Shown in pieces: positions 5,082 through 15,350 of a stretch of DNA of 26,922 bases. This DNA comes from a virus. Lineage: Duplodnaviria > Caudoviricetes. Under the pieces are notes generated by a model. The model was not told the origin of the DNA. It worked only from the letters and a program-made list of their open reading frames with translations, and ran no database searches. The number at the start of each line of letters is the position of its first letter. Position 1 is the stretch's first letter. The DNA is taken from the IMG/VR virus record IMGVR_UViG_3300037313_001071, positions 1 to 26,922 of that record. One strand, written 5' to 3'. The translations under genes were made by a program, and so were the position numbers.

Positions 5082-5300
5082 CTAAAACTCGCAACTAAAG
5101 CCGGCCTTTACAGCAGCAATACAAATTGCAGGCTGCGAAGGACCGGCTTTAGTGCAGTAGAGGGGAGGCGGCCCAGGTTCCGCCTTCGTCACCTCAATCT
5201 TTGGGCGGCAAGATTCCAACCTTATCGGAAGTGGCGTAGTTGAGGAACACGCCGACAACGATAGCAATGGCGCTAGCCACCGTAGTAGCCTCAGCTTCGC
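5082..5300 (-). CDS. Putative lipoprotein (spanin-like) overlapping the 3' end of the upstream membrane gene; start uncertain
   Basis: Frame reads KLRLLRWLAPLLSLSAC-SSTTPLP...PGPPP...GFSCEF: basic residues, hydrophobic stretch, lipobox LSAC and a Pro-rich mature part, within the lysis cassette. No ATG just before the signal. Confidence 0.4.
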   Translation of the reverse strand, partial: AKLRLLRWLAPLLSLSACSSTTPLPIRLESCRPKIEVTKAEPGPPPLYCTKAGPSQPAICIAAVKAGFSCEF

Positions 5301-5499: not shown

Positions 5500-6060
5500 T
5501 CACGCGCCCTCTTTCAAGGTCGTGACCACACGCTGTAGCATCCAGCCGTAAATGAAATCCTCCTGCGTCACTTGCGACTTAGCAAGTTGCAAGAAGTGTC
5601 CACCCTGGCTGCACGCAATCGCGTACCGCATAACCTCAGCACCTTCAGCACCTCTCCACCTACGATAAGCACGAAAAGCGCTAAGAGTAACAGAGCCAAT
5701 CCGACCGTCCACAAACACATCTGCATAGCGGCTTCCTTGCATGTTAAACGCATTGAGCCACTCTTGGAACATCGGGGAAACGCGCGCCGGGCCCATAAGC
5801 ACCCCTGCGTCCACAAGCCTTCGCCCGACGCCTTCATCGATCTCTGCCACCTTATCAAACTTAGGCGCCGCGATGTAGCGGTCCCTGTAGATTTCACGCG
5901 CGACGGACACAGGTAGGTTCTGCATCGCACCCGTGTAACCCCATTTGGCGGCGGTGGCTTGTGTGATGCCCCAATTGGTTGGACCGCCCCGGTCATTCGG
6001 ATGATCGACAAAACCCTTCTCCCTGGCAATGACATCGTCAATCACGTCTTCAAAGTTCAT
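5500..6060 (-). CDS. Endolysin, glycoside hydrolase family 108 with C-terminal peptidoglycan-binding domain
   Basis: EKGFVDHPNDRGGPTNWGIT GH108 motif; VDGRIGSVTL and FIYGWMLQRV PG_binding_3-like end. Confidence 0.93.
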   Translation of the reverse strand: MNFEDVIDDVIAREKGFVDHPNDRGGPTNWGITQATAAKWGYTGAMQNLPVSVAREIYRDRYIAAPKFDKVAEIDEGVGRRLVDAGVLMGPARVSPMFQEWLNAFNMQGSRYADVFVDGRIGSVTLSAFRAYRRWRGAEGAEVMRYAIACSQGGHFLQLAKSQVTQEDFIYGWMLQRVVTTLKEGA

Positions 6061-6260
6061 TGCTTAGGTCCTTTGCGCCTACCGCGCATCCAGTCTTTCT
6101 CTTCCCGCCACCATTTCCGCAGCAGGTACGCAGCCTGGATAACCACATAGCAGCCCGTCAGGAAGCCAATCCAGTTCAAGCTAGTGGCCCAATACAGCCA
6201 GGTCCCGCCAACAGCAGGAGTCCCCTGTGCCGCTTGAGAAAAGAATTCACTCCTGAACAT
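6057..6260 (-). CDS. Holin (class II, T7 gp17.5-like)
   Basis: 67 aa from ATG 6260 (RBS GGAGG): hydrophobic core SLNWIGFLTGCYVVIQAAYLL with a basic C-terminal tail; ATGA overlap with the endolysin. Confidence 0.72.
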   Translation of the reverse strand: MFRSEFFSQAAQGTPAVGGTWLYWATSLNWIGFLTGCYVVIQAAYLLRKWWREEKDWMRGRRKGPKQ

Positions 6261-6405
6261 CTGATGCCTCCTTGGGTTCTGTGCAAGGCACTTCAGAAGG
6301 TTTCGCGTCATATTGCCTCTCATCGCGGGGCAGCTTGCGCACATCCCCGTTCATGTCCATGCTCTTACGCATGCACCACTTGGCGTATTCTTCTGCTTCG
6401 GTCAT
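6247..6405 (-). CDS. Small hypothetical protein (52 aa)
   Basis: Below the track cut-off. RBS AGGAG + ATG; MTEAEEYAKWCMRKSMDMNGDVRKLP...; overlaps the holin start. Confidence 0.5.
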   Translation of the reverse strand: MTEAEEYAKWCMRKSMDMNGDVRKLPRDERQYDAKPSEVPCTEPKEASDVQE

Positions 6406-6550
6406 TTCACTGCTCCTACTTAGTGAAAAGGCCGTAACAGAGGGAGGTCAGGCCTTGTTATTGCTTTGGCCCAAGCATACGACTTTGCGGGTTTGAGAAA
6501 AGGCAGGCGCCTAAGATAATTCGCGCTGACCGGGCGAAACCGGGTGTGGG

Positions 6551-6793
6551 TTAGATGCTAATGTTGAGCCCCAGCTCACGGAAGAGCTGGACCTGTAGGG
6601 CTAGTTTGTCAAGCAACACACCCTGGAGCTCGAGACTGGATTCACGCAGCCGTTCCATTTCTTCCTTGTCGCCCTGCTTACAAGCCAGAACGTACATTTC
6701 GATATTCGCTTTGGCTTTGAGCGTAATGACGTTGACCTCGTACAGGATCTTGTCCAGTACGGCTTGCTTCTGTCTGCGCTCTGCGTCTTCCAT
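6551..6793 (-). CDS. Hypothetical helical protein (80 aa)
   Basis: MEDAERRQKQAVLDKILYEV...; starts 1 nt after the nuclease stop. Confidence 0.6.
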   Translation of the reverse strand: MEDAERRQKQAVLDKILYEVNVITLKAKANIEMYVLACKQGDKEEMERLRESSLELQGVLLDKLALQVQLFRELGLNISI

Positions 6794-6794
6794 T

Positions 6795-7313
6795 TTAGCC
6801 ACCCATGGCAAATTGGACTGGCGGGAGGGGGACGGCGGGATTCCGCGTATCCAGTTCAGGATGCTCTGCACGAAGGTTTGCGCGGACGTGCCACCGGAAC
6901 CATTCCTTGAAGTCGTCATAGTCAAGCTCCACCCTGAACGGGAAATAGCTTTGCGCCGTCGCCCCCTGGAACTCGGCAACCGTAATACAGCGCCACTTCG
7001 TGCGCTGCCCAGGCTTAGCGTTTTGACGGAACAGGAGCACAGGGATCCCGTTCAGCGCCTTCGCACTCGCCAAGCACTGCGCCCACCAGGAGTTGATCGA
7101 GAGGGTTTCCTGCCTCTTTACCTCAATGGCAAAACCATACGTGCCAACCAAGTCACATCCGCCCACAGCGCTTTGCTGCTGGTTGCGCTGGACCTGCGGC
7201 TTTGTGAGCGCGGGTAGGCCAAGCTGGGCCCTGACCACAGTGATGATGGCGTTAAGGTCGTCAGCGATTTCCCGCTCACCCACCTGGCCCTTGGCACGTA
7301 TGTTGATGCCCAT
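6795..7313 (-). CDS. PD-(D/E)XK endonuclease / Holliday junction resolvase-like
   Basis: RAKGQVGEREIA...GCDL...AIEVKRQE...PVLLFR motif order of Hjc-like resolvases. Confidence 0.8.
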   Translation of the reverse strand: MGINIRAKGQVGEREIADDLNAIITVVRAQLGLPALTKPQVQRNQQQSAVGGCDLVGTYGFAIEVKRQETLSINSWWAQCLASAKALNGIPVLLFRQNAKPGQRTKWRCITVAEFQGATAQSYFPFRVELDYDDFKEWFRWHVRANLRAEHPELDTRNPAVPLPPVQFAMGG

Positions 7314-7320
7314 GATGTGG

Positions 7321-7536
7321 TTACACCTGTTCTTCGACGTCTTCTTCGGGGATGAAGAACGCCATTGCTTCCGGGTCACGCGCCCCGTCCAGCGTTACGC
7401 GGACGTGGGGCACGGACATCTCGATGTCGTTCTCCACAGGGTCCAGCTCGTACACCTTCGTACCCTCGGGCAGCGGGGCAATGAAGGGGCCGGTGGTAAC
7501 GAGGCGGTCACCGCGTTTGACTTTGAAGATTCTCAT
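7321..7536 (-). CDS. Hypothetical protein (71 aa)
   Basis: ATGA coupling with the upstream gene; fits operon packing. Confidence 0.6.
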   Translation of the reverse strand: MRIFKVKRGDRLVTTGPFIAPLPEGTKVYELDPVENDIEMSVPHVRVTLDGARDPEAMAFFIPEEDVEEQV

Positions 7537-7895
7537 GCTACTATTCCTTTGCTTGATGGAAGATTGAGGTCCCGCAGAGCTTGCGGAAGGGATTGGGATT
7601 CGAGGCGTGCTTTTTCGAGAATGACCTTACGCTTACCGTAATGCGCCACCTTCTCGTAGTTGTACAGCGCCTCGTGACCACGCTTGGCCTTACCCAACGT
7701 CCGTGCCGCAGCCGTTCGCCACAGCGCCTTGAACGCCTCGCCCTCGTTGAAGTCCATGCCGAGCGCCTCAATGATATCGCTGCACTCAGCCTGGTAAGGC
7801 TCACCCAATTGGTTCGGGTGCTTAACTTCAACAATGTAGTAGTTGACCGGTCCCCCGGTCCACTCTGTCGTAAAGCTCTTATCAGCCATGGTCAT
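7533..7895 (-). CDS. DUF3310-like (T7 gp1.7 nucleotide-kinase related) protein
   Basis: GGPVNYY...ECSDIIEALGMDFNEGEAFKALWR...YEKVAHY pattern. Start moved to the ATG at 7895/7889 because the longer ORF overlaps a terminator. Confidence 0.7.
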   Translation of the reverse strand: MTMADKSFTTEWTGGPVNYYIVEVKHPNQLGEPYQAECSDIIEALGMDFNEGEAFKALWRTAAARTLGKAKRGHEALYNYEKVAHYGKRKVILEKARLESQSLPQALRDLNLPSSKGIVA

Positions 7896-7964
7896 TTGTT
7901 TGTGGGGTCCGCGCAGTGTACAGGTACAGCCAACAGGATAGCAAGTGTGCGGGGATGTAAAGTC

Positions 7965-7994
7965 AAAAAAAATCCCCGCACACAGGCGGGGATT
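7965..7994 (-). terminator. Rho-independent terminator
   Basis: AATCCCCGC-CTGTGT-GCGGGGATT followed by a T run on the minus strand. Confidence 0.85.
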
Positions 7995-8988
7995 AAGATC
8001 CAAATCCATGCCAACTTACGCTGACGGAGAAAGGCGTAGGTTGCAGAGGGGACTAGCGCACAGACGTTGGATCACACCTAACAGTGGCAACTGCGTGGAG
8101 GTGCAAGGATGCGGGTCGGTAGCCCAACCAAACCGGAATTCGCCCAACCGGAAAGGGCGCGAACCTATAAACCACCGACCCGCAAAGGGGAGCTGACTAC
8201 CTGAATCAACTCTCCCTTGCGGACTGGCACAAGGGGACCTGAGCTTTTTACGTTGGAGCGGTACCCCCAACCGAGGACTGACAGATCATCGACCTCTTGT
8301 TTGCGTGACAGCAAAGGTCCGCCGGCTAGCGGTGTTGCAGCAGGAACCCCATGGCGAACATGGCAGTCGTCCTCCACTAACCGGCGGGCCTTTGCCGTCG
8401 CTTCACAGCGATACGCAAAGGATGCTGGGTTGCAAAATCCCAGCTGGCGGCGCACATTCTTTTTGATTCGACCCAAGCACCGGGGGTCTCCTCCACAATG
8501 GAGTGTGTTTTAGGGGTTGGGCAGGGTGTGCGTGGATCCTCTCGGGAAACAGAGGGCTCCCAACGCGTCCTATTCAGTAGAAACTACCTTCACATGGACC
8601 AAACGGGGGCCGGTCATCCTCCGACTCACACTCGCACAGTACCCAACCTCTAAAAGACACTCCTGGAATGTGTTTTTGGCGCTACCCGACTGCATGGTCT
8701 GATTGCATTCAGACTGGTATTGGGACCAACCTCACAGTCTTAAACGGACAAGTCCGTCTGCGATCTACACCCGGATAGCGGCAGAAACACATTCCTGCGC
8801 AGCGGTACTTCTTTGAATTGCGCCCCGCTGAGGCCCAATATACGGCACAGTCCCACGCGGCATCTCCCGACTGGCAGGTTCGTCTTTGTGCCACAAACGG
8901 GCGGGACAGAGGCTCTACGGACGTTGACACCCGTCAAGCCAAGTCGGTATCCATTTCTGGCTACCAACACCCGTTTGCTGCGTGGTGC
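7995..8988 (-). ncRNA. Candidate ~1 kb highly structured non-coding RNA
   Basis: No credible ORF; bounded by a promoter and a terminator. Many nested helices (8500-8523/8640-8663, 8319-8332/8374-8387, 8110-8122/8172-8184, 8665-8689/8771-8795, 8894-8901/8970-8977), with most imperfect pairs being G-U on the minus strand. Confidence 0.75.
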
Positions 8989-8992
8989 ATGC

Positions 8993-9021
8993 ACTATAAC
9001 ACGGGTTGCACGGATGAGCAG
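8993..9021 (-). promoter_or_regulatory. Extended -10 promoter driving the candidate ncRNA
   Basis: Minus strand TGT-TATAGT (TGn + -10 at 8993-8998), just downstream of the 9050 stop codon. Confidence 0.55.
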
Positions 9022-9049
9022 TGGGCGAAATTGTAAACGGATATTGCGT

Positions 9050-9424
9050 CTATGTTGAACTCGGATCTCCGATAGGAAGCAGGATCGACCCCTTGATATC
9101 CGTGATCGTAATTTCACCCTCAAAGGGGCAGTTAGGCACAGGGTCGACGTGCAAAACCTTCCCTTCATGCGAATATTCAATGATTACGCCGTGCTCAGGG
9201 TGCTTGTAAACGATGATTTTGTCGAAACGAGCGAACCATTTCGACCCTTCAATGTAGAAGTCCTTGTTGTCCTGCAAAGCCTTCTTAAACATCGAGGCCA
9301 GAGTGTGCGGTACATGCTTTGCCGGCTCCGGTGCCTGTTCCTGCACGTCGTGTATGACCACAGTAGGCTTTTCACACACGCACAGCTCCGGTTTCCTGTG
9401 GCATTTTGGACAAATTGTCTGCAT
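9050..9424 (-). CDS. Hypothetical protein with N-terminal Cys cluster
   Basis: MQTICPKCHRKPELCVC; RBS GGAG. Confidence 0.7.
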   Translation of the reverse strand: MQTICPKCHRKPELCVCEKPTVVIHDVQEQAPEPAKHVPHTLASMFKKALQDNKDFYIEGSKWFARFDKIIVYKHPEHGVIIEYSHEGKVLHVDPVPNCPFEGEITITDIKGSILLPIGDPSST

Positions 9425-9527
9425 TTCGCTTACTCCAAGCTCTTTTCATACCCTCACTCGCCACCTTAAACAGTGGCACGTTGAAGATTTTGCTGGCTAA
9501 TTCCGGCTTTTTGCCCGAAATTTCCAT
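9372..9527 (-). CDS. Possible small hypothetical protein
   Basis: GGAGG RBS + ATG (MEISGKKPEL...), but overlaps the next gene by about 50 nt. Confidence 0.3.
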   Translation of the reverse strand: MEISGKKPELASKIFNVPLFKVASEGMKRAWSKRNADNLSKMPQETGAVRV

Positions 9528-9540
9528 TGCCAGCCTCCAA

Positions 9541-9744
9541 TCATGCGCGATCCGGTGCATTTTCAGCCCTTTCAAGCCACATGAGGCCTATGAGAATGGG
9601 GATGTTAAGGACGGGAATGAAGGCAAAGGGGATGGTTTTGACTGTGAAGCGGACGCCGCAGAGCACGTACCAGCACAGGTTCATGGTTCCGACCACGACG
9701 GTGACAAAAATGAGCACCGTGAGCACGAATGGGTCATACGGCAT
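9541..9744 (-). CDS. Small two-TM membrane protein (67 aa)
   Basis: MPYDPFVLTVLIFVTVVVGTMNLCWYVL...FAFIPVLNIPILIGLMWL; RBS GAGG. Confidence 0.6.
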   Translation of the reverse strand: MPYDPFVLTVLIFVTVVVGTMNLCWYVLCGVRFTVKTIPFAFIPVLNIPILIGLMWLERAENAPDRA

Positions 9745-9745
9745 G

Positions 9746-10117
9746 TTAGAGGTCCTCATAGCGGATTGGTGTCCGGGTAGCACAGCTCTTTGCATGCCCA
9801 ATGCTGCTGGAACCACCGCAGGTGCAGATGTGCACGGTGCTGAATTCACCTTGGAGGTGCTGTGGCTGTGGAGAGTAAGGGCACCGCTCCAGGTGCATCT
9901 CGCTCTCGTGCGCCCCGCAGCTAACGCAGTACCCACCGCTGCGAATGTGCTTAGGCGGAACATGACCCGCCGTGTACGCCACCGCGTCCCAAGCCGCCTT
10001 CACTTCTTCCTGTAACTCGTGCCAATGCGGCGGCGCAGTCTTTTTGTGGTTCGCAGGCGTCAGCCAAATAGCCCTGCGCCAGACTTCGTATAGGATTTCC
10101 GCTCGTGCCGTTGCCAT
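9746..10117 (-). CDS. Hypothetical protein with Cys/His (Zn-binding-like) motifs
   Basis: ATG 10117 with RBS AGGAGG; CVSC...H...C and CTC...H...C motifs. Confidence 0.7.
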   Translation of the reverse strand: MATARAEILYEVWRRAIWLTPANHKKTAPPHWHELQEEVKAAWDAVAYTAGHVPPKHIRSGGYCVSCGAHESEMHLERCPYSPQPQHLQGEFSTVHICTCGGSSSIGHAKSCATRTPIRYEDL

Positions 10118-10141
10118 GGGTTTACCTCCTGCAAAACACAC

Positions 10142-10195
10142 AGCTTAACGCAGGTTAACCCGATTTGCAAGTCAGCAGGAAGATCGATTTGCAAG
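10142..10195 (-). promoter_or_regulatory. Sigma70-like promoter with tandem CGATTTGCAAG repeats
   Basis: Minus strand TTGCAA-17nt-TAAGCT. An 11-bp direct repeat at 10161-10171 and 10185-10195; the first copy covers the -35. Confidence 0.6.
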
Positions 10196-10200
10196 CCTGA

Positions 10201-10368
10201 TCAGAGATTTAGAAGTCGGATGACAGCAGCAACCCAAGCACCGCCAAAGAACATAGAGGCGCAGATGGTCAGCTCCGTGGCACCGGCCGAGACTTTATTG
10301 TGGGTGACCACACTGTAAGCGAACAGGGTGATGCTGAGGACGAAGCAGATGAAGATGAGGTAGAACAT
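10201..10368 (-). CDS. Small two-TM membrane protein (55 aa)
   Basis: Hand-read: MFYLIFICFVLSITLFAYSVVTHNKVSAGATELTICASMFFGGAWVAAVIRLLNL. TATACT lies 10 nt upstream (near-leaderless). Confidence 0.5.
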   Translation of the reverse strand: MFYLIFICFVLSITLFAYSVVTHNKVSAGATELTICASMFFGGAWVAAVIRLLNL

Positions 10369-10769
10369 AGTGGTGGGCAGTATAAGTGCTGGAAGGCTCT
10401 GATGTGGATCCTGCCCTTACGCGTGCGTGCGTTATGCGTACAGGCGTGTTATGGGCAGAAAAGGCTATTACGAAGAAATAAAGGGTGTGCATTCCATAAC
10501 GAATATCGATTTAAATTGAGAATCATGTGTTGATGGTACCTCCGCCCGGTCAGCCCAGCAGTAAAGATGGTAGCCGGTGAGGTAACAGATTACATGCTCT
10601 GCAGTTCCAGCTGGGCAGTAGACAGCACAGCAATAGGGTAGCTGTGCAGTAGCAGCTGGACTGTATGGAATGGACGTGCTAGCAGCAACAGCGGGGTAGT
10701 GCTAGCGCAGCAGGAAGTACGGATGTGCTGTACGGTACAGCGTGTGTCTAATTGGAACTTAGACTACTG

Positions 10770-11130
10770 CGTGTTAATGGTAATTGCGTTATGGGTTATG
10801 CAATGGGAATTAAGCGATTTATTAAGCGCTGTGCGTTATGGGGTAATTAAACAAAGCCCCAAAGTTCCGTTTAGAACAGATTTGCTGGGGGTTTTACTAT
10901 AGTGCTTTTACTGTTATGTTATATATATATTATTTTTACCTTATACCATTGGTAATGGGGTGTACATTAAGCGAGGCGCGTTTCTTTTATTTATTAATGT
11001 ATTTAATACCATTACCATTGGTGTTTACACACATATGGCATACCGTATAACGCATAGCGCACTACCATTACTAATACCCCATTACCAATACCCCATTAGT
11101 AATCGTATTTGCATCCAGCATAACGCGTTA
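10770..11130. repeat. AT-rich region with mirrored short repeats (candidate origin/terminus)
   Basis: GCGTTATG and TAATGG motifs on the left, ATAACGC and CCATTA motifs on the right, around a TA run at about 10920; lies at the transcription divergence point. Confidence 0.45.
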
Positions 11131-11831: not shown

Positions 11832-12368
11832 AGTATTATGACGCAATTTGCGTACCAGCTAACTTAGTGCTTCGGTTTGCAGCGTGCTATGGTTTTTGCG
11901 TAACCAGTCGTACAAACGCGTTTTAAGCGCTTTTTTAAGGGTACCCGCTACCCTAGTACCAACCCTCAAAAGTTTTTTGCTGTTGCGCTGACGTTTTGCG
12001 CACTTGGGTATTACTTGCACTATGCTTTGCATAGCACATTTGCAAACGAGGGTACTACAAACACTGCTGAGCTTACTACAGCGTGGGTGCTACTGCTGCG
12101 CTTGGTGCTTATGCATGAGCTTAAAACGCAGCACGACAGTAGCTACTGCTGTGTTTAACGCGTGTTAACGCCACCCGTTACCATGTTAACTACCACGTAG
12201 CCCACAACCGGCGTAGCAAGCGCACAATGTAGTCATGGGTGGTTATTGCACCACCCCACCTGAAGCGAGGGGTACCCACCCCGCGCACACAGGGTAGCTC
12301 AACGGTGTGGTGCTGGTGCTGTACAGCACCCGTGCGGTGCTCAACCGCTTACCACATCAAAGCGCTAG

Positions 12369-12384
12369 CGCTACTTTAACAATT
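12369..12384 (+). promoter_or_regulatory. boxA-like antitermination site
   Basis: CGCTACTTTAACAATT versus rrn boxA TGCTCTTTAACA (one extra base); upstream of the early operon. Confidence 0.4.
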
Positions 12385-12543
12385 CACACACTAGGTTAGC
12401 TCTACTATATTTTGGGTAACTCAACCTTTGCGCTTGCTGTGTAAGCACCGCGCATCGCAGCTCAACCTTACAGCACATCAGCTACGCGCTGGTGTGCTGT
12501 GCGGTGCAAGTTGCACCAGTAGTAACCCAACCGGAGTAACACC

Positions 12544-12813
12544 ATGTTTGTAGTCTCTAGCAATGGTACTGACCAGCTTCAACCCATCCGGGCAGTTGGC
12601 AGCACACCAGCTAACGCGTGCATCGTTTACGTTACGTTGCTCAACGCACAGCTCATTGCAAAGGTGCAGAAGGGTACGTACACAAACGCAGTAAACGGTG
12701 TTGTGTACGAAAGTGTTATTAGCTTTGACCAGCTAACAGCATTTGAAGAGCTTGCGCCATTTGTTTACGAGATGTTTGATGGGCAAGTAAAACTTACACT
12801 CAAAAAGGTCTAA
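12544..12813 (+). CDS. Early hypothetical protein (89 aa)
   Basis: GGAG-7nt-ATG after a hairpin module. Confidence 0.75.
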   Translation: MFVVSSNGTDQLQPIRAVGSTPANACIVYVTLLNAQLIAKVQKGTYTNAVNGVVYESVISFDQLTAFEELAPFVYEMFDGQVKLTLKKV

Positions 12814-12905
12814 ACCTCAAGCGCTACCGCGTATGTAGCGCACAGCTCAACCGTTCTGGTAGCTGTGCGGTGCATATGCACCTCAACCATACTAGGAGCT
12901 CAACC

Positions 12906-13169
12906 ATGTCAAACAACCTCACCCGTACCTACACTGTGCAACTGTTTATGCAGTTTGTGTTTAACGGTACTGATGAGAAGCAAGCGGAACAGCAGCTTGA
13001 TGAGCTTAAGCTGGTGCTTAAGCTGTTGCATAAGGTCGACCCAACAGAAGTTGAGTACGAGCTTGCAGACGCTGGTACCGATGAGCTGCATTACCGCATG
13101 TGGGTGTGGTGTACATACAACACAGCACCCGCTGTGCTTCAAACCATCAGCACCACCTACAAAGCGTAA
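12906..13169 (+). CDS. Early hypothetical protein (87 aa)
   Basis: GGAG-7nt-ATG; flanked by near-identical repeats. Confidence 0.75.
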   Translation: MSNNLTRTYTVQLFMQFVFNGTDEKQAEQQLDELKLVLKLLHKVDPTEVEYELADAGTDELHYRMWVWCTYNTAPAVLQTISTTYKA

Positions 13170-13255
13170 ACCTCAAGCGCTACAGTGCGTAGCGCACAGC
13201 TCAACTTCAACGTTAGCTGTGCAGTACGCACCAAACGTACTAAACCGGAGGTATT

Positions 13256-13378
13256 ATGTCACACTTTTACCACATACACCTTAAGTGTGTCCAACTGCTG
13301 TGGAAGATGTTGCAAGAGGCGCATGTAACGCATGCACCGTATTGCTGGGTCGAAAACCACGCAGAAGCACAACCGTAA
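13256..13378 (+). CDS. Early small protein (40 aa)
   Basis: Hand-read MSHFYHIHLKCVQLLWKMLQE...; GGAGG RBS after a hairpin module. Confidence 0.55.
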   Translation: MSHFYHIHLKCVQLLWKMLQEAHVTHAPYCWVENHAEAQP

Positions 13379-13402
13379 CCAACCACCAACCGGAGCCCAA
13401 CC

Positions 13403-13564
13403 ATGCACGCTACCTCAACCGCATTCGTCAACGGTCCAGTCAAGGTCCGCCAGCTCATGCGTAAAGCCACCCGCCAGCCCAGCTGGAAGGTGGCACAGCG
13501 GGCACCCAGCCCATGTGTGGTTATCAAACCACAACAGCAGCAACAACCAGAATCCCGAAGCTGA
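13403..13564 (+). CDS. Early small basic protein (53 aa)
   Basis: Hand-read MHATSTAFVNGPVKVRQLMRK...; CAACCGGAGCCCAACCATG leader. Confidence 0.6.
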   Translation: MHATSTAFVNGPVKVRQLMRKATRQPSWKVAQRAPSPCVVIKPQQQQQPESRS

Positions 13565-13650
13565 ATTTCGAATTCACCGCATTGCACATCCGTAGGGTGT
13601 GCTCTGCAGTGCATTTGCACTACCACGCAACCCAACCGGAGTAATACACC

Positions 13651-13845
13651 ATGAAAGTCGCTGCAATCGAAATCCGTTGCGAGCATGCGGAAGCTGTTAC
13701 GGATTTTATGCAAGAGCTTGAAAACCAGTGCATACAAACGCTGGAGTTCGGGCAGCTGGACAGCAACCCGCTAGTTGTGCGCATTGCGCCACACTTTGGG
13801 GACCACCTGGACCCCGAGTTGCTTGTCACGCTTAACCTCGACTAG
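13651..13845 (+). CDS. Early hypothetical protein (64 aa)
   Basis: GGAG RBS after a hairpin module. Confidence 0.7.
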   Translation: MKVAAIEIRCEHAEAVTDFMQELENQCIQTLEFGQLDSNPLVVRIAPHFGDHLDPELLVTLNLD

Positions 13846-13925
13846 CAAACACCACCTAGCACATCCATACGTGTGCTAGCTAGTGTTTACTAACACTGCC
13901 CAACCCAACCGAAGGAGAACCTACC

Positions 13926-14348
13926 ATGTCCGACAAATTTGTTGCAACCGTTAAGGGTCTGGAACAACTGGAAAACGGCGATTACACCGATAAAATGGTG
14001 CAAATTGCAACCCAGGAATTCGAAACGCTTACGGAAGCTTGCAATTATTGCGAAATGGAAGCGCACGGCATTAAGGGCGCGGACTGGACCGTAGCGGCAA
14101 AGCTCAGCTTCAAAAAAGCCTGCTCAACCGTTGCTGCCAGCCGTAACCGCAAGCTGTTCCTTTACATGCAACTGGACGCGCTTAATGCGGGCGGGGACCA
14201 CCTGCCTCTGCAGTCCAGCGTGGAACTAAAAGCGCCGCAAATTTGCAAAGTGTTGCATGAAATGGAAAAGCGGGTGCACCCGGAATACGAGCCGGAAAAG
14301 TGCACCGTGCGTCTGCTTGTAACCAAAGACCACATGATTGCTGGTTAA
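13926..14348 (+). CDS. Early hypothetical protein (140 aa)
   Basis: AAGGAG RBS after a hairpin module. Confidence 0.78.
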   Translation: MSDKFVATVKGLEQLENGDYTDKMVQIATQEFETLTEACNYCEMEAHGIKGADWTVAAKLSFKKACSTVAASRNRKLFLYMQLDALNAGGDHLPLQSSVELKAPQICKVLHEMEKRVHPEYEPEKCTVRLLVTKDHMIAG

Positions 14349-14446
14349 CCACACAGCTCAGCCAGCCGCTAGCACATCCACCGGGTGTGCATGCGGGTGA
14401 CAGTTGCGAGTCACTAACATCCACAGCCCAACCAAGGAGTAACACC

Positions 14447-14698
14447 ATGCAAGTTCACGTCATTGCGCTCGACGTTGCGTACACAGGCAATATGCAACAG
14501 TTTGCAGGTGCAACGGAAGCCGCTGTTGTGGAGAAGGTAAAGGCGTACCTTGACGGTACACCTTTAACGGACCACGAAACGCAGCCGCCCAAGTGCCTGT
14601 ATGACCTGGGCAACGCGACCACGTTTAAGGAGCTGGAGAATTGGTTTGCCACATGGCTGGACCAGTACCAGCTTGCCTATAACGAATTGGAAGTCTGA
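14447..14698 (+). CDS. Early hypothetical protein (83 aa)
   Basis: AAGGAG-7nt-ATG (MQVHVIALDV...). Confidence 0.75.
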   Translation: MQVHVIALDVAYTGNMQQFAGATEAAVVEKVKAYLDGTPLTDHETQPPKCLYDLGNATTFKELENWFATWLDQYQLAYNELEV

Positions 14699-14780
14699 GT
14701 AACTAACTGCATGCCCATCTATAAAGTGGGCATGAGGGTAGCGACTCGTTACCATCCACCTCAACCCTAGGAGCCCAACC

Positions 14781-14984
14781 ATGTTCACCTGTAACTTCGA
14801 CAACAAAGTGTTGAATATCCGGCTCATTGCTGCCAAGCAAAAGGCTCAGCAACGCAGCCGAGAGCGCCGCTGCACCGTATTTGTCAACTTCAGCGTAATA
14901 GCTGGCACGTTTTACGCAACTGATTGGTATGACGGCGACTCAACCGTTGCTAGATTCCATGACGGCAAAGAAACTGAGTTTTAA
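14781..14984 (+). CDS. Early hypothetical protein (67 aa)
   Basis: AGGAG-7nt-ATG. Confidence 0.72.
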   Translation: MFTCNFDNKVLNIRLIAAKQKAQQRSRERRCTVFVNFSVIAGTFYATDWYDGDSTVARFHDGKETEF

Positions 14985-15056
14985 GTCCTGTCAGCCGCTA
15001 GCCCGTTCTGCGGGTTAGCTGGTGGCGACTTGCTACCATCCATTAGGAGCCCAACC

Positions 15057-15350
15057 ATGAACCTCTACATTAAGGTGCCTGGTACCAACCTTCCAGCGCA
15101 CAGCGCGGACATTGCCGAAATGCTGTTCGGCAACCGCAAGGCGAAGTTGCCGGTCAGCGGTCTGCTCACGCAAAAGCTTCAGGGTATCAAAATCTGGGCT
15201 ATGCCCTTACAAGCTACCCGCAACACGCGCCCAAACCAGCGCTTCCACCTACGCCTTATGGCGCAATGCCCCGTGTGCGGCAAAGTGACGGCAGCGGGTA
15301 GGCTCGCGCAACATTCCAAGGTCCACGCAGCGCCCAACTTTTGGGGTTGA
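15057..15350 (+). CDS. Early protein with C-terminal C2H2 zinc-finger-like motif
   Basis: CPVCGKVTAAGRLAQHSKVH; AGGAG-7nt-ATG. Confidence 0.75.
   Translation: MNLYIKVPGTNLPAHSADIAEMLFGNRKAKLPVSGLLTQKLQGIKIWAMPLQATRNTRPNQRFHLRLMAQCPVCGKVTAAGRLAQHSKVHAAPNFWG

Follow-up and report, generated by a model that had tools for sequence, protein, structure and literature searches.

A large structured RNA predicted in a soil phage genome, the longest member found of a modular family of phage non-coding RNAs

What does a tailed phage encode in about one kilobase of DNA that holds no credible gene for a protein? The question is raised by positions 7965 to 8986 of the stretch of DNA analysed here (the window, 26,922 nt), which is a whole virus record and the partial genome of a tailed phage. 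A first inspection of the letters, hereafter the sequence-only reading, had proposed a structured minus-strand RNA at this locus, with its own promoter and terminator and possibly of a new large class. In our analysis, the locus is best read as a large structured RNA on the minus strand that falls outside Rfam, and we put the probability that it is a real non-coding RNA gene at roughly 0.9.

By PHROGs annotation, the minus strand of the window carries the genes for scaffold, portal, TerL, TerS, endolysin, holin and a RusA-like nuclease, and the plus strand those for primase, ligase and Sak4. TerL is ~66% identical to that of Iggyvirus and to that of Seurat-like coliphages, a sequence similarity on which the phage is termed Queuovirinae-like. 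The sequencing runs with this DNA are soil metagenomes, and five of the eight listed runs contain at least half of its words. The tight packing that had made the gap conspicuous does not hold everywhere: 10.2-13.9 kb is gene-poor, with an AT-rich divergence point at 10.4-11 kb. The element is intergenic, the flanking ORFs ending and beginning outside it, and its neighbours are:

9050..9424, minus strand: upstream orphan ORF of 124 aa, with no PHROG or Pfam match
7533..7895, minus strand: downstream small gene, in PHROG families of unknown function, with homologues in loci L001, L002, L016 and L079
6795..7379, minus strand: PF24608 PD-(D/E)XK / RusA-like nuclease gene, which served as synteny anchor

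Among 5.8 billion proteins, the 124-aa ORF has no relative besides its own cluster; placed directly upstream of the RNA on the same strand, it is a possible partner. The RNA lies 3 kb upstream of terS/terL, on their strand, a position that recalls phi29 pRNA, the RNA of a packaging motor. An analogous role is extremely improbable, given that the RNA is missing from close kin whose terminase genes are the same and that the phage has an ordinary TerS, TerL and portal.

Other parts of the window are structured as well. The early-gene region at 12085-15174 (plus strand) is over-folded, 48-59 kcal/mol below shuffles, and contains several families of recurring intergenic hairpins and near-identical ribosome-binding leaders, possibly processing or promoter elements in multiple copies. 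A long imperfect hairpin at 5083-5155, between a 91-aa gene and terS (200-nt window z -8.4, plus strand), is by eye not a U-tailed terminator, and the intergenic stretch downstream of the scaffold gene, 400-570, is structured too (z -7.1, plus strand). In strain X3, differences are dense at 6879-6987, where the nuclease gene ends and the next ORF starts, which suggests a recombined patch.

The ends of the proposed transcript were examined for signals of transcription, and both elements named by the sequence-only reading were recovered on the minus strand:

7965..8986, minus strand: predicted non-coding RNA of ~1,020 nt, on the grounds of its fold, its tile excess and the lack of Rfam or tRNA matches
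8993..9001, minus strand: extended -10 promoter (TG-n-TATAGT), predicted start near 8986
9030..9058, minus strand: alternative sigma70-like promoter, predicted start near 9023
7965..7994, minus strand: intrinsic terminator with a 9-bp stem and U8, by scan and direct pairing check
7935..7943, minus strand: candidate extended -10 for the downstream genes, read from the sequence, not scored by the scan

With two promoter candidates, the 5' end lies at ~8986 or ~9023. The terminator scan by itself is not significant: where 4.3 terminator-like sites are expected over 4 kb, it found 4. Because the candidate -10 at 7935..7943 would serve the downstream genes, the RNA appears to be a stand-alone unit. 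In the relatives described below, a sigma70-like -35/-10 is seen by eye a few bases before the 5' domain D1, and L076 and L043 resemble the window just after the -10 (also by eye). Many relatives have a conserved 9-nt motif ~20 nt upstream of the sigma70-like promoter (L024:3679, L032:4506, L037:810, L017:766, L028:279), perhaps an activator site; a resembling stretch occurs in the window at 9363 (minus strand), inside the 124-aa ORF.

No internal reading frame is credible as a gene, as had been claimed, although several frames of 50-146 aa do exist. None of the three tested matched PHROGs and none of the eight tested matched Pfam, and indels in strains X2 and X4 shift the frame of seven of the 11 internal ORFs examined, breaking the larger ones; the four unaffected are plus-strand frames of 51-83 aa. 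The claimed novelty survived the search of Rfam: in all 26,922 nt there was no match at the gathering score, including to the GOLLD, ROOL and OLE covariance models, and at E<=10 only terminator-shaped noise appeared in 7700-9300. Neither Rfam nor ARAGORN found a tRNA, tmRNA, RNase P, SRP RNA or 6S RNA in the window, in line with the missing hallmarks reported earlier, and relaxed ARAGORN settings returned just noise scattered across it. A group I or II intron was rejected, as Rfam found no intron core and no gene is interrupted. Full-length homologues were found neither by blastn in 50,697 phages or 72,556 plasmids nor by blastn/nhmmer in 166 loci, where the best hit (E=0.1) was the D5 hairpin introduced below. 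The pattern of arm 1 had no homologue among viral contigs, and self-BLAST of the contig showed no antisense target, all matches beyond the element having E>=1.

The fold is strong. The 996-nt minus strand folds at -437.7 kcal/mol (z -8.3; none of 20 shuffles as good), and of 25 1-kb tiles folded on the sense strand, that of the element lies furthest below its shuffles, by 74 kcal/mol, with the next tile at 59. Folded one by one, five sub-domains out of six reach significance (z -3.4 to -6.4); the exception is arm 2, folded as a 150-nt piece that lacks its outer 5' strand. Each of the six helices that the sequence-only reading had listed was reproduced on the minus strand:

8500-8523/8640-8663, minus strand: 24 bp (21 Watson-Crick, 1 G-U, 2 mismatches)
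8785-8795/8665-8675, minus strand: 11 of 11 bp Watson-Crick
8771-8780/8680-8689, minus strand: 10 bp (8 Watson-Crick, 2 G-U)
8374-8387/8319-8332, minus strand: 14 bp (12 Watson-Crick, 2 G-U)
8172-8184/8110-8122, minus strand: 13 bp (12 Watson-Crick, 1 G-U)
8970-8977/8894-8901, minus strand: 8 of 8 bp Watson-Crick

A hairpin with a GNRA loop is likewise present, at 8411-8398, but only 3 bp of its stem survive in the MFE fold. Comparing MFE z-scores on both strands, a check that had been proposed, established structure without picking a strand, since the plus strand scores -9.1 (again none of 20 shuffles as good) against -8.3 for the minus strand. The strand is indicated by other evidence. Among the non-Watson-Crick pairs of the six helices, 6 are G-U when read on the minus strand and 1 when read on the plus strand, as had been noticed, and pairs with p>0.9 number 227 on the minus strand, 21 of them G-U, against 164 with 10 G-U on the plus strand. 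The minus strand is preferred because this bias agrees with the direction of promoter and terminator and with the homology of module D2, discussed below.

With no full-length homologue to be found by sequence, 160 loci were gathered around the downstream PF24608 gene; TerL as anchor gave 5 viral and no GTDB loci, and the upstream ORF none. Several PF24608 loci have a promoter-led non-coding gap upstream of the gene, some with tRNAs, which occur in six of 166 loci. In related Queuovirinae-like phages, this slot holds a set of RNA motifs that is unannotated, led by a promoter, 200-900 nt long and often followed by tRNAs; short members measure ~200-450 nt. The AT-rich conserved gaps of the L024/L037 type were set aside, as they mostly fold poorly and resemble the promoter/divergence region, not this RNA.

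The 5' domain of the family, D1, is a three-way junction closed by a loop-to-tail pseudoknot. In 11 sequences, the same ones from which the structure was drawn, 84.5% of cells pair, and in 12 of the 22 pairs both partners vary, including all six of the pseudoknot; none of 500 shuffles reaches this pairing, and sliding the partners lowers it to 30-39%. Covariance model R1, built on D1, matched 16 of the 100 loci given to it, 11 being its seeds, and found the held-out L181 (E=1.5e-7) and L234 (E=7.7e-7); the pseudoknot of L234 carries a compensatory change. Members occur in two cultured phages, Alteromonas phage R7M, with no annotated feature under the match, and Pantoea phage Vid5, where hypothetical ORFs overlie it. 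The papers on these phages make no mention of noncoding RNA, ncRNA or intergenic features, no earlier description of an RNA family with D1, D2 or D3 was met in the literature searched, and Rfam had no match on the motif in the family loci scanned. Because most anchor loci are without any module, and D1 was not found in Iggy or four other whole records (a scan that had no positive control), the RNA is regarded as accessory.

The modules occur in different combinations. D1, D2 and D3 are found together in L030, L053, L060 and L086; D1 with D3 in L051; D1 and D2, 380 nt apart, in L181; D1 only in L079, L175 and L234; D5 alone in L014, L017, L028 and L096; D2 with D5 in the window; and D2 alone, inside a tRNA array, in L196. 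D3, a third pseudoknot, is present in five short members and missing in L181, L079, L175 and L046. Downstream of the family RNA lie tRNAs in L046, L097, L079, L175 and L181, a protein gene in L030, L053, L060 and L086, and a terminator in the window. Three of the four distinct tRNA-bearing anchor loci carry D1, and in L079, L175 and L181 structured stretches of 650-900 nt precede the tRNAs.

This association with tRNAs brings up another explanation, in which the RNA is a precursor cut into small stable RNAs and D1 and D2 are processing or exonuclease-blocking signals, or D2 a small ribozyme. HDV-like ribozymes are nested double pseudoknots with a P3/L3 element; an HDV-like (theta) ribozyme was rejected, as D2 is a simple H-type knot without P3/L3 and has no Rfam ribozyme match. 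The solitary D2 between tRNA-like elements in L196 would suit a precursor, as would T4 and T5, whose records list 2 and 8 stable RNAs among the tRNAs, with no function assigned. So would the modelled topology of D1, which is that of flaviviral xrRNAs; these also block the bacterial RNase J1 (PMC8374639). The window itself speaks against processing, as it has no tRNA to process and D1 is at best degenerate there, and we hold this explanation to be rather unlikely.

The tRNA neighbourhoods contain further units. L196:1-2720 is a large tRNA array with several aberrant tRNA-like units and a sub-threshold match to YrlA (Y RNA-like). A second module just before the tRNAs is common to L079:730-805 and L175 (minus strand, ~780-715; 78% over 68 nt, E=1.7e-9), and L181 has other pieces in common with each of the two. 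More unannotated structured or tRNA-like units adjoin tRNAs at L097:5035-5390, L046:5790-5990 and L090:4180-4680.

Does the window belong to this family? The slot is the same: its RNA lies upstream of the PF24608 nuclease gene, on the same strand, behind a sigma70-like promoter. An unbiased pairwise alignment linked window 8838-8797 to L047 and L053 and thereby revealed D2, whose stem 1 (S1) is formed by 8836-8832/8824-8820 with a G-G opposition, followed by a loop 1 of 1 nt, and whose stem 2 (S2) is formed by 8830-8825/8805-8800, with an A-rich loop 3. A D2 descriptor, written with the window in view, was run over 1.47 Mb of loci and matched nothing but family members and the window; the window has one match, its 100 shuffles none. 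The descriptor leaves S2 unspecified, and S2 pairs, counted by script, are Watson-Crick at 40 of 40 positions in eight sequences, two of them chosen for pairing and the other six, including the window, not; four of five positions vary. The top pair of S1 alternates between U-A and C-G, and the Vid5 variant has a C-G pair in place of the G-G opposition. A first HMM of D2 and D3, built on a raw MAFFT alignment, missed the window; an HMM built without the window finds its D2 at E=1.4e-5, with six Watson-Crick S2 pairs. As controls, 24 of 34 viral matches to the bare D2 pattern have S2 runs of 0-4, and none of its 10 GTDB matches has a paired S2 (runs 0-4). D2-like knots of a generic kind arise by chance at 0.37 per kb. 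L181, found via D2 alone, carries D1 too. The distance from the start of the RNA to D2 is 131-157 nt in six short members and 155 nt in the window, offsets measured from segments cut at or just before D1. Through D2, the window RNA is very probably homologous to the family.

The other modules vary in their support. The D5 hairpin precedes a terminator in the same slot in its four relatives, and an HMM built from these scores E=0.0026 in the window and E=0.15 over all loci, so that a hairpin common to window and relatives has moderate support. R1 has no match in the element at E<=10; a D1-like core 49 nt upstream of D2 reaches a PWM score of 12.9, where members have 20.8-32.1, and ranks sixth in the window, making D1 at best degenerate there. 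D3 is absent from the window by HMM search of the element, which a by-eye candidate at 8274-8236 also failed.

The layout of the window RNA, read from its 5' end, is as follows:

8893..8978, minus strand: 5' arm at the position of family helix P2, two hairpins at its tip, z -3.4
8845..8885, minus strand: possible degenerate D1 core, a hairpin 8878-8866 with a loop complementary to 8852-8848, PWM 12.9
8800..8836, minus strand: D2 H-type pseudoknot, by alignment, descriptor, HMM and pair count
8661..8797, minus strand: arm 1, with the 11-bp and 10-bp helices and a three-way junction, z -6.4
8497..8665, minus strand: arm 2, with the 24-bp helix, by pairing check; probable diverged duplicate of arm 1
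8424..8444, minus strand: 6-bp hairpin whose loop has a 6-nt palindrome and a 5-nt complementarity to 8708-8703
8300..8419, minus strand: arm 3, with 7-, 11- and 14-bp helices and the GNRA side hairpin, z -6.4
8110..8218, minus strand: two further long hairpins, z -5.1
8074..8106, minus strand: D5 hairpin, common to terminator-ended units in L014, L017, L028 and L096

The RNA thus adds to the 5' layout of the family ~700 nt of arms of its own, followed by D5 and a terminator, and at ~1,020 nt it is the longest member found. No homologue of the ~700 nt of central arms was found, and the modules with covariation behind them are D2, for the window, and D1, for the relatives; of the ornate nested fold described by the sequence-only reading, the helices are present, and covariation supports single modules of it. 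Arms 1 and 2 align with a score above all of 500 shuffles and all of 637 genome tiles, and their interiors alone are not significant (44 of 500 shuffles). Judging by this similarity, arm 2 is probably a diverged, old duplicate of arm 1.

Long arms radiating from a centre, two of them probably duplicated, invite a structural reading, in which arms and loop-loop contacts would join copies into an RNA-only homo-oligomer or nanocage like those of GOLLD and ROOL. These RNAs resemble ours in size, phage location and tRNA-island neighbourhood (PMC12286853), and a loop that is palindromic and two pairs of loops with 5-nt complementarity could provide contacts. Such complementarities are at chance level, however (one palindromic loop against 0.4 expected, not significant), Rfam gives no match to GOLLD or ROOL, and a length of ~200 to 1,020 nt with only short modules conserved fits a fixed cage poorly. 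An assembly of this kind is accordingly not likely.

The arm-1 loop 8724-8719 (minus strand) has a 6-nt complement at 8839-8834 (minus strand), overlapping S1 of D2, and this pairing is a possible alternative fold. Such a switch would suit a cis-acting leader or attenuator governing read-through into the nuclease, lysis and packaging genes, upstream of which the RNA lies on the same strand, and short members do run into a ribosome-binding site without a U-tract. A leader is nonetheless quite unlikely in view of the strong terminator with no evident antiterminator, the candidate promoter behind it, the 1-kb length and the change of downstream genes across the family.

Variation between strains bears on whether the element acts as RNA at all. 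X2 and X4 each have one contig covering 7900-9100, with 13 and 12 substitutions, respectively, all within 8918-8960; outside it, only single bases are lost, in homopolymer runs at 7965 and 8264. The segment 8916-8960 of the 5' arm is thus hypervariable between strains. Read by hand, the GNRA-capped 3-bp stem 8960-8951 is swapped in X2 and X4 for a different 4-bp stem with the GNRA loop kept, and the foot of the hairpin beside it still pairs, which gives the minus strand a slight sign of compensatory change.

X7 and X8, root metatranscriptome runs from a single study, gave one contig each inside the element. That of X7 spans 8220-8477 with 1 difference; that of X8 joins 8596-8660 to 8793-9000. 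No other long match occurs in 6000-11000, and at a depth of ~2 missing cover elsewhere is no evidence. The runs were found with a query about half of which was the RNA element, and DNA can occur in such libraries, so that the contigs are a weak hint of expression. The X8 joint, 8660/8793, falls on 5-nt direct repeats that stand at the base of the 11-bp helix, takes out arm 1 and nothing else, and is absent from the DNA runs X2, X3, X4 and X6; it fits either a reverse-transcriptase template switch on folded RNA, a known mechanism, or a strain with one arm fewer. This contig reaches 9000, 14 nt upstream of the start predicted from the extended -10, and the second promoter or read-through may contribute to the transcript. 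In X8, the stretch 8845-8894 also differs by 9 substitutions and several gaps, evidence against strong constraint there.

A relic or DNA-level element with no RNA function, such as a degenerate intron, MITE-like insertions, an origin or a pac site, could account for arm 1, with its inverted ends, 5-nt direct repeats on both flanks and absence from one contig, and for a plus-strand z-score as strong as that of the minus strand. It is very unlikely all the same: no intron family matches the intergenic element, G-U bias and pseudoknot covariation are signatures of RNA, the element in X2 and X4 is free of substitutions outside one hairpin, and the AT-rich divergence point is elsewhere, at 10.4-11 kb.

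As to what the RNA does, we tentatively propose, ahead of the other roles weighed here and by analogy with other phage RNAs, that it might work in trans, serving as decoy or scaffold against host RNA-binding defence proteins. Host sigma70 polymerase would produce a stable RNA of ~1 kb from a stand-alone, protein-free phage gene, and the RNA would accumulate during infection, guarded from decay by its 5' knot, pseudoknots and terminator. A partner would then read the conserved face of D2 (S1 and the A-rich loop, with S2 free to vary), and this partner may be a nuclease of the host or another of its defence proteins, the kind of opponent met by phage tRNAs and pseudo-ToxI; lineages would gain, copy and lose modules as they meet other hosts. 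Trans action is preferred to cis control because the downstream context differs across family members, and the free combination of modules across loci counts in favour of a decoy or scaffold. There are precedents: a T5 tRNA neutralises the PARIS defence (PMC11464382), and phage TE evades ToxIN via a pseudo-ToxI RNA mimic (PMC5086642). Against it count the single copy of D2 and, given the rate of chance knots, the restriction of its likeness to CptI to architecture. So do the shallow signal of expression, the ~700 nt of arms that lack a homologue and the accessory distribution of the RNA. A wider form of the proposal, which we consider doubtful, is a cassette-like class of phage RNAs, in which modules would be strung, duplicated and swapped behind one promoter in a tRNA-island slot, each neutralising or recruiting a different defence protein; the window RNA would be the largest, and D2 a mobile module that reached the tRNA array of an unrelated phage. 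The functions proposed here are not fully mutually exclusive.

Several known systems offer comparisons. Type III antitoxins include an H-type pseudoknot of ~37 nt, and CptI has a 1-nt loop 1 and a long A-rich loop, as does D2; they are tandem 34-57-nt repeats followed by a terminator and toxin gene (PMC5086642), whereas D2 is without direct repeats, the downstream gene has no toxin family match and Rfam finds none of these RNAs. D1 in the family, as modelled, resembles flaviviral xrRNAs in that its three-way junction, placed at the 5' end, is combined with a loop-to-tail pseudoknot (PMC8374639), and differs in belonging to a bacteriophage DNA gene; in the window, D1 is not convincing. T5 RNA X (719 nt) and the small stable RNAs of T4 and T5 are likewise phage RNAs that are stable, lie in tRNA clusters and have no known function; in the record annotation, RNA X stands before a tRNA and is served by a promoter of its own. 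Yet T4 rnaC and rnaD and eight T5 stable RNAs show no match to D1, D2, D3 or D5 and no alignment to the window RNA. Fremin et al. (2023) listed 10,006 viral candidate structured RNAs of 29-151 nt from IMG/VR intergenic regions (PMC10690425). The short modules D1, D2 and D3 could be among these, the window RNA being far longer; the readable supplements held no match to our motifs or contigs, the alignment files lying outside the search.

The closest comparison is with GOLLD and ROOL, which are large, highly paired, pseudoknotted, phage-encoded, of unknown function and often near tRNA islands (PMC12286853). By the marks of that group (phage origin, more than 500 nt, tRNA proximity), the window RNA has the first two, and tRNAs occur only downstream of five family members. 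The window and the scanned family loci fail the GOLLD and ROOL models of Rfam, and the family is modular and variable in length. Few classes of large structured RNAs are known in bacteria and phages, and their functions are a long-standing question. To these the present work adds a family with covarying pseudoknots, unannotated even in the cultured phages R7M and Vid5, whose existing phage-host pairs allow work on expression, structure and knock-outs, and whose lengths of 200-1,020 nt form a natural series for the growth of large RNAs by module gain and duplication. The new class suggested by the sequence-only reading is thus not a singleton, having short relatives, and becomes a new family outside Rfam within a known kind of large orphan phage RNAs: real, modular, and like GOLLD and ROOL in kind while a member of neither.
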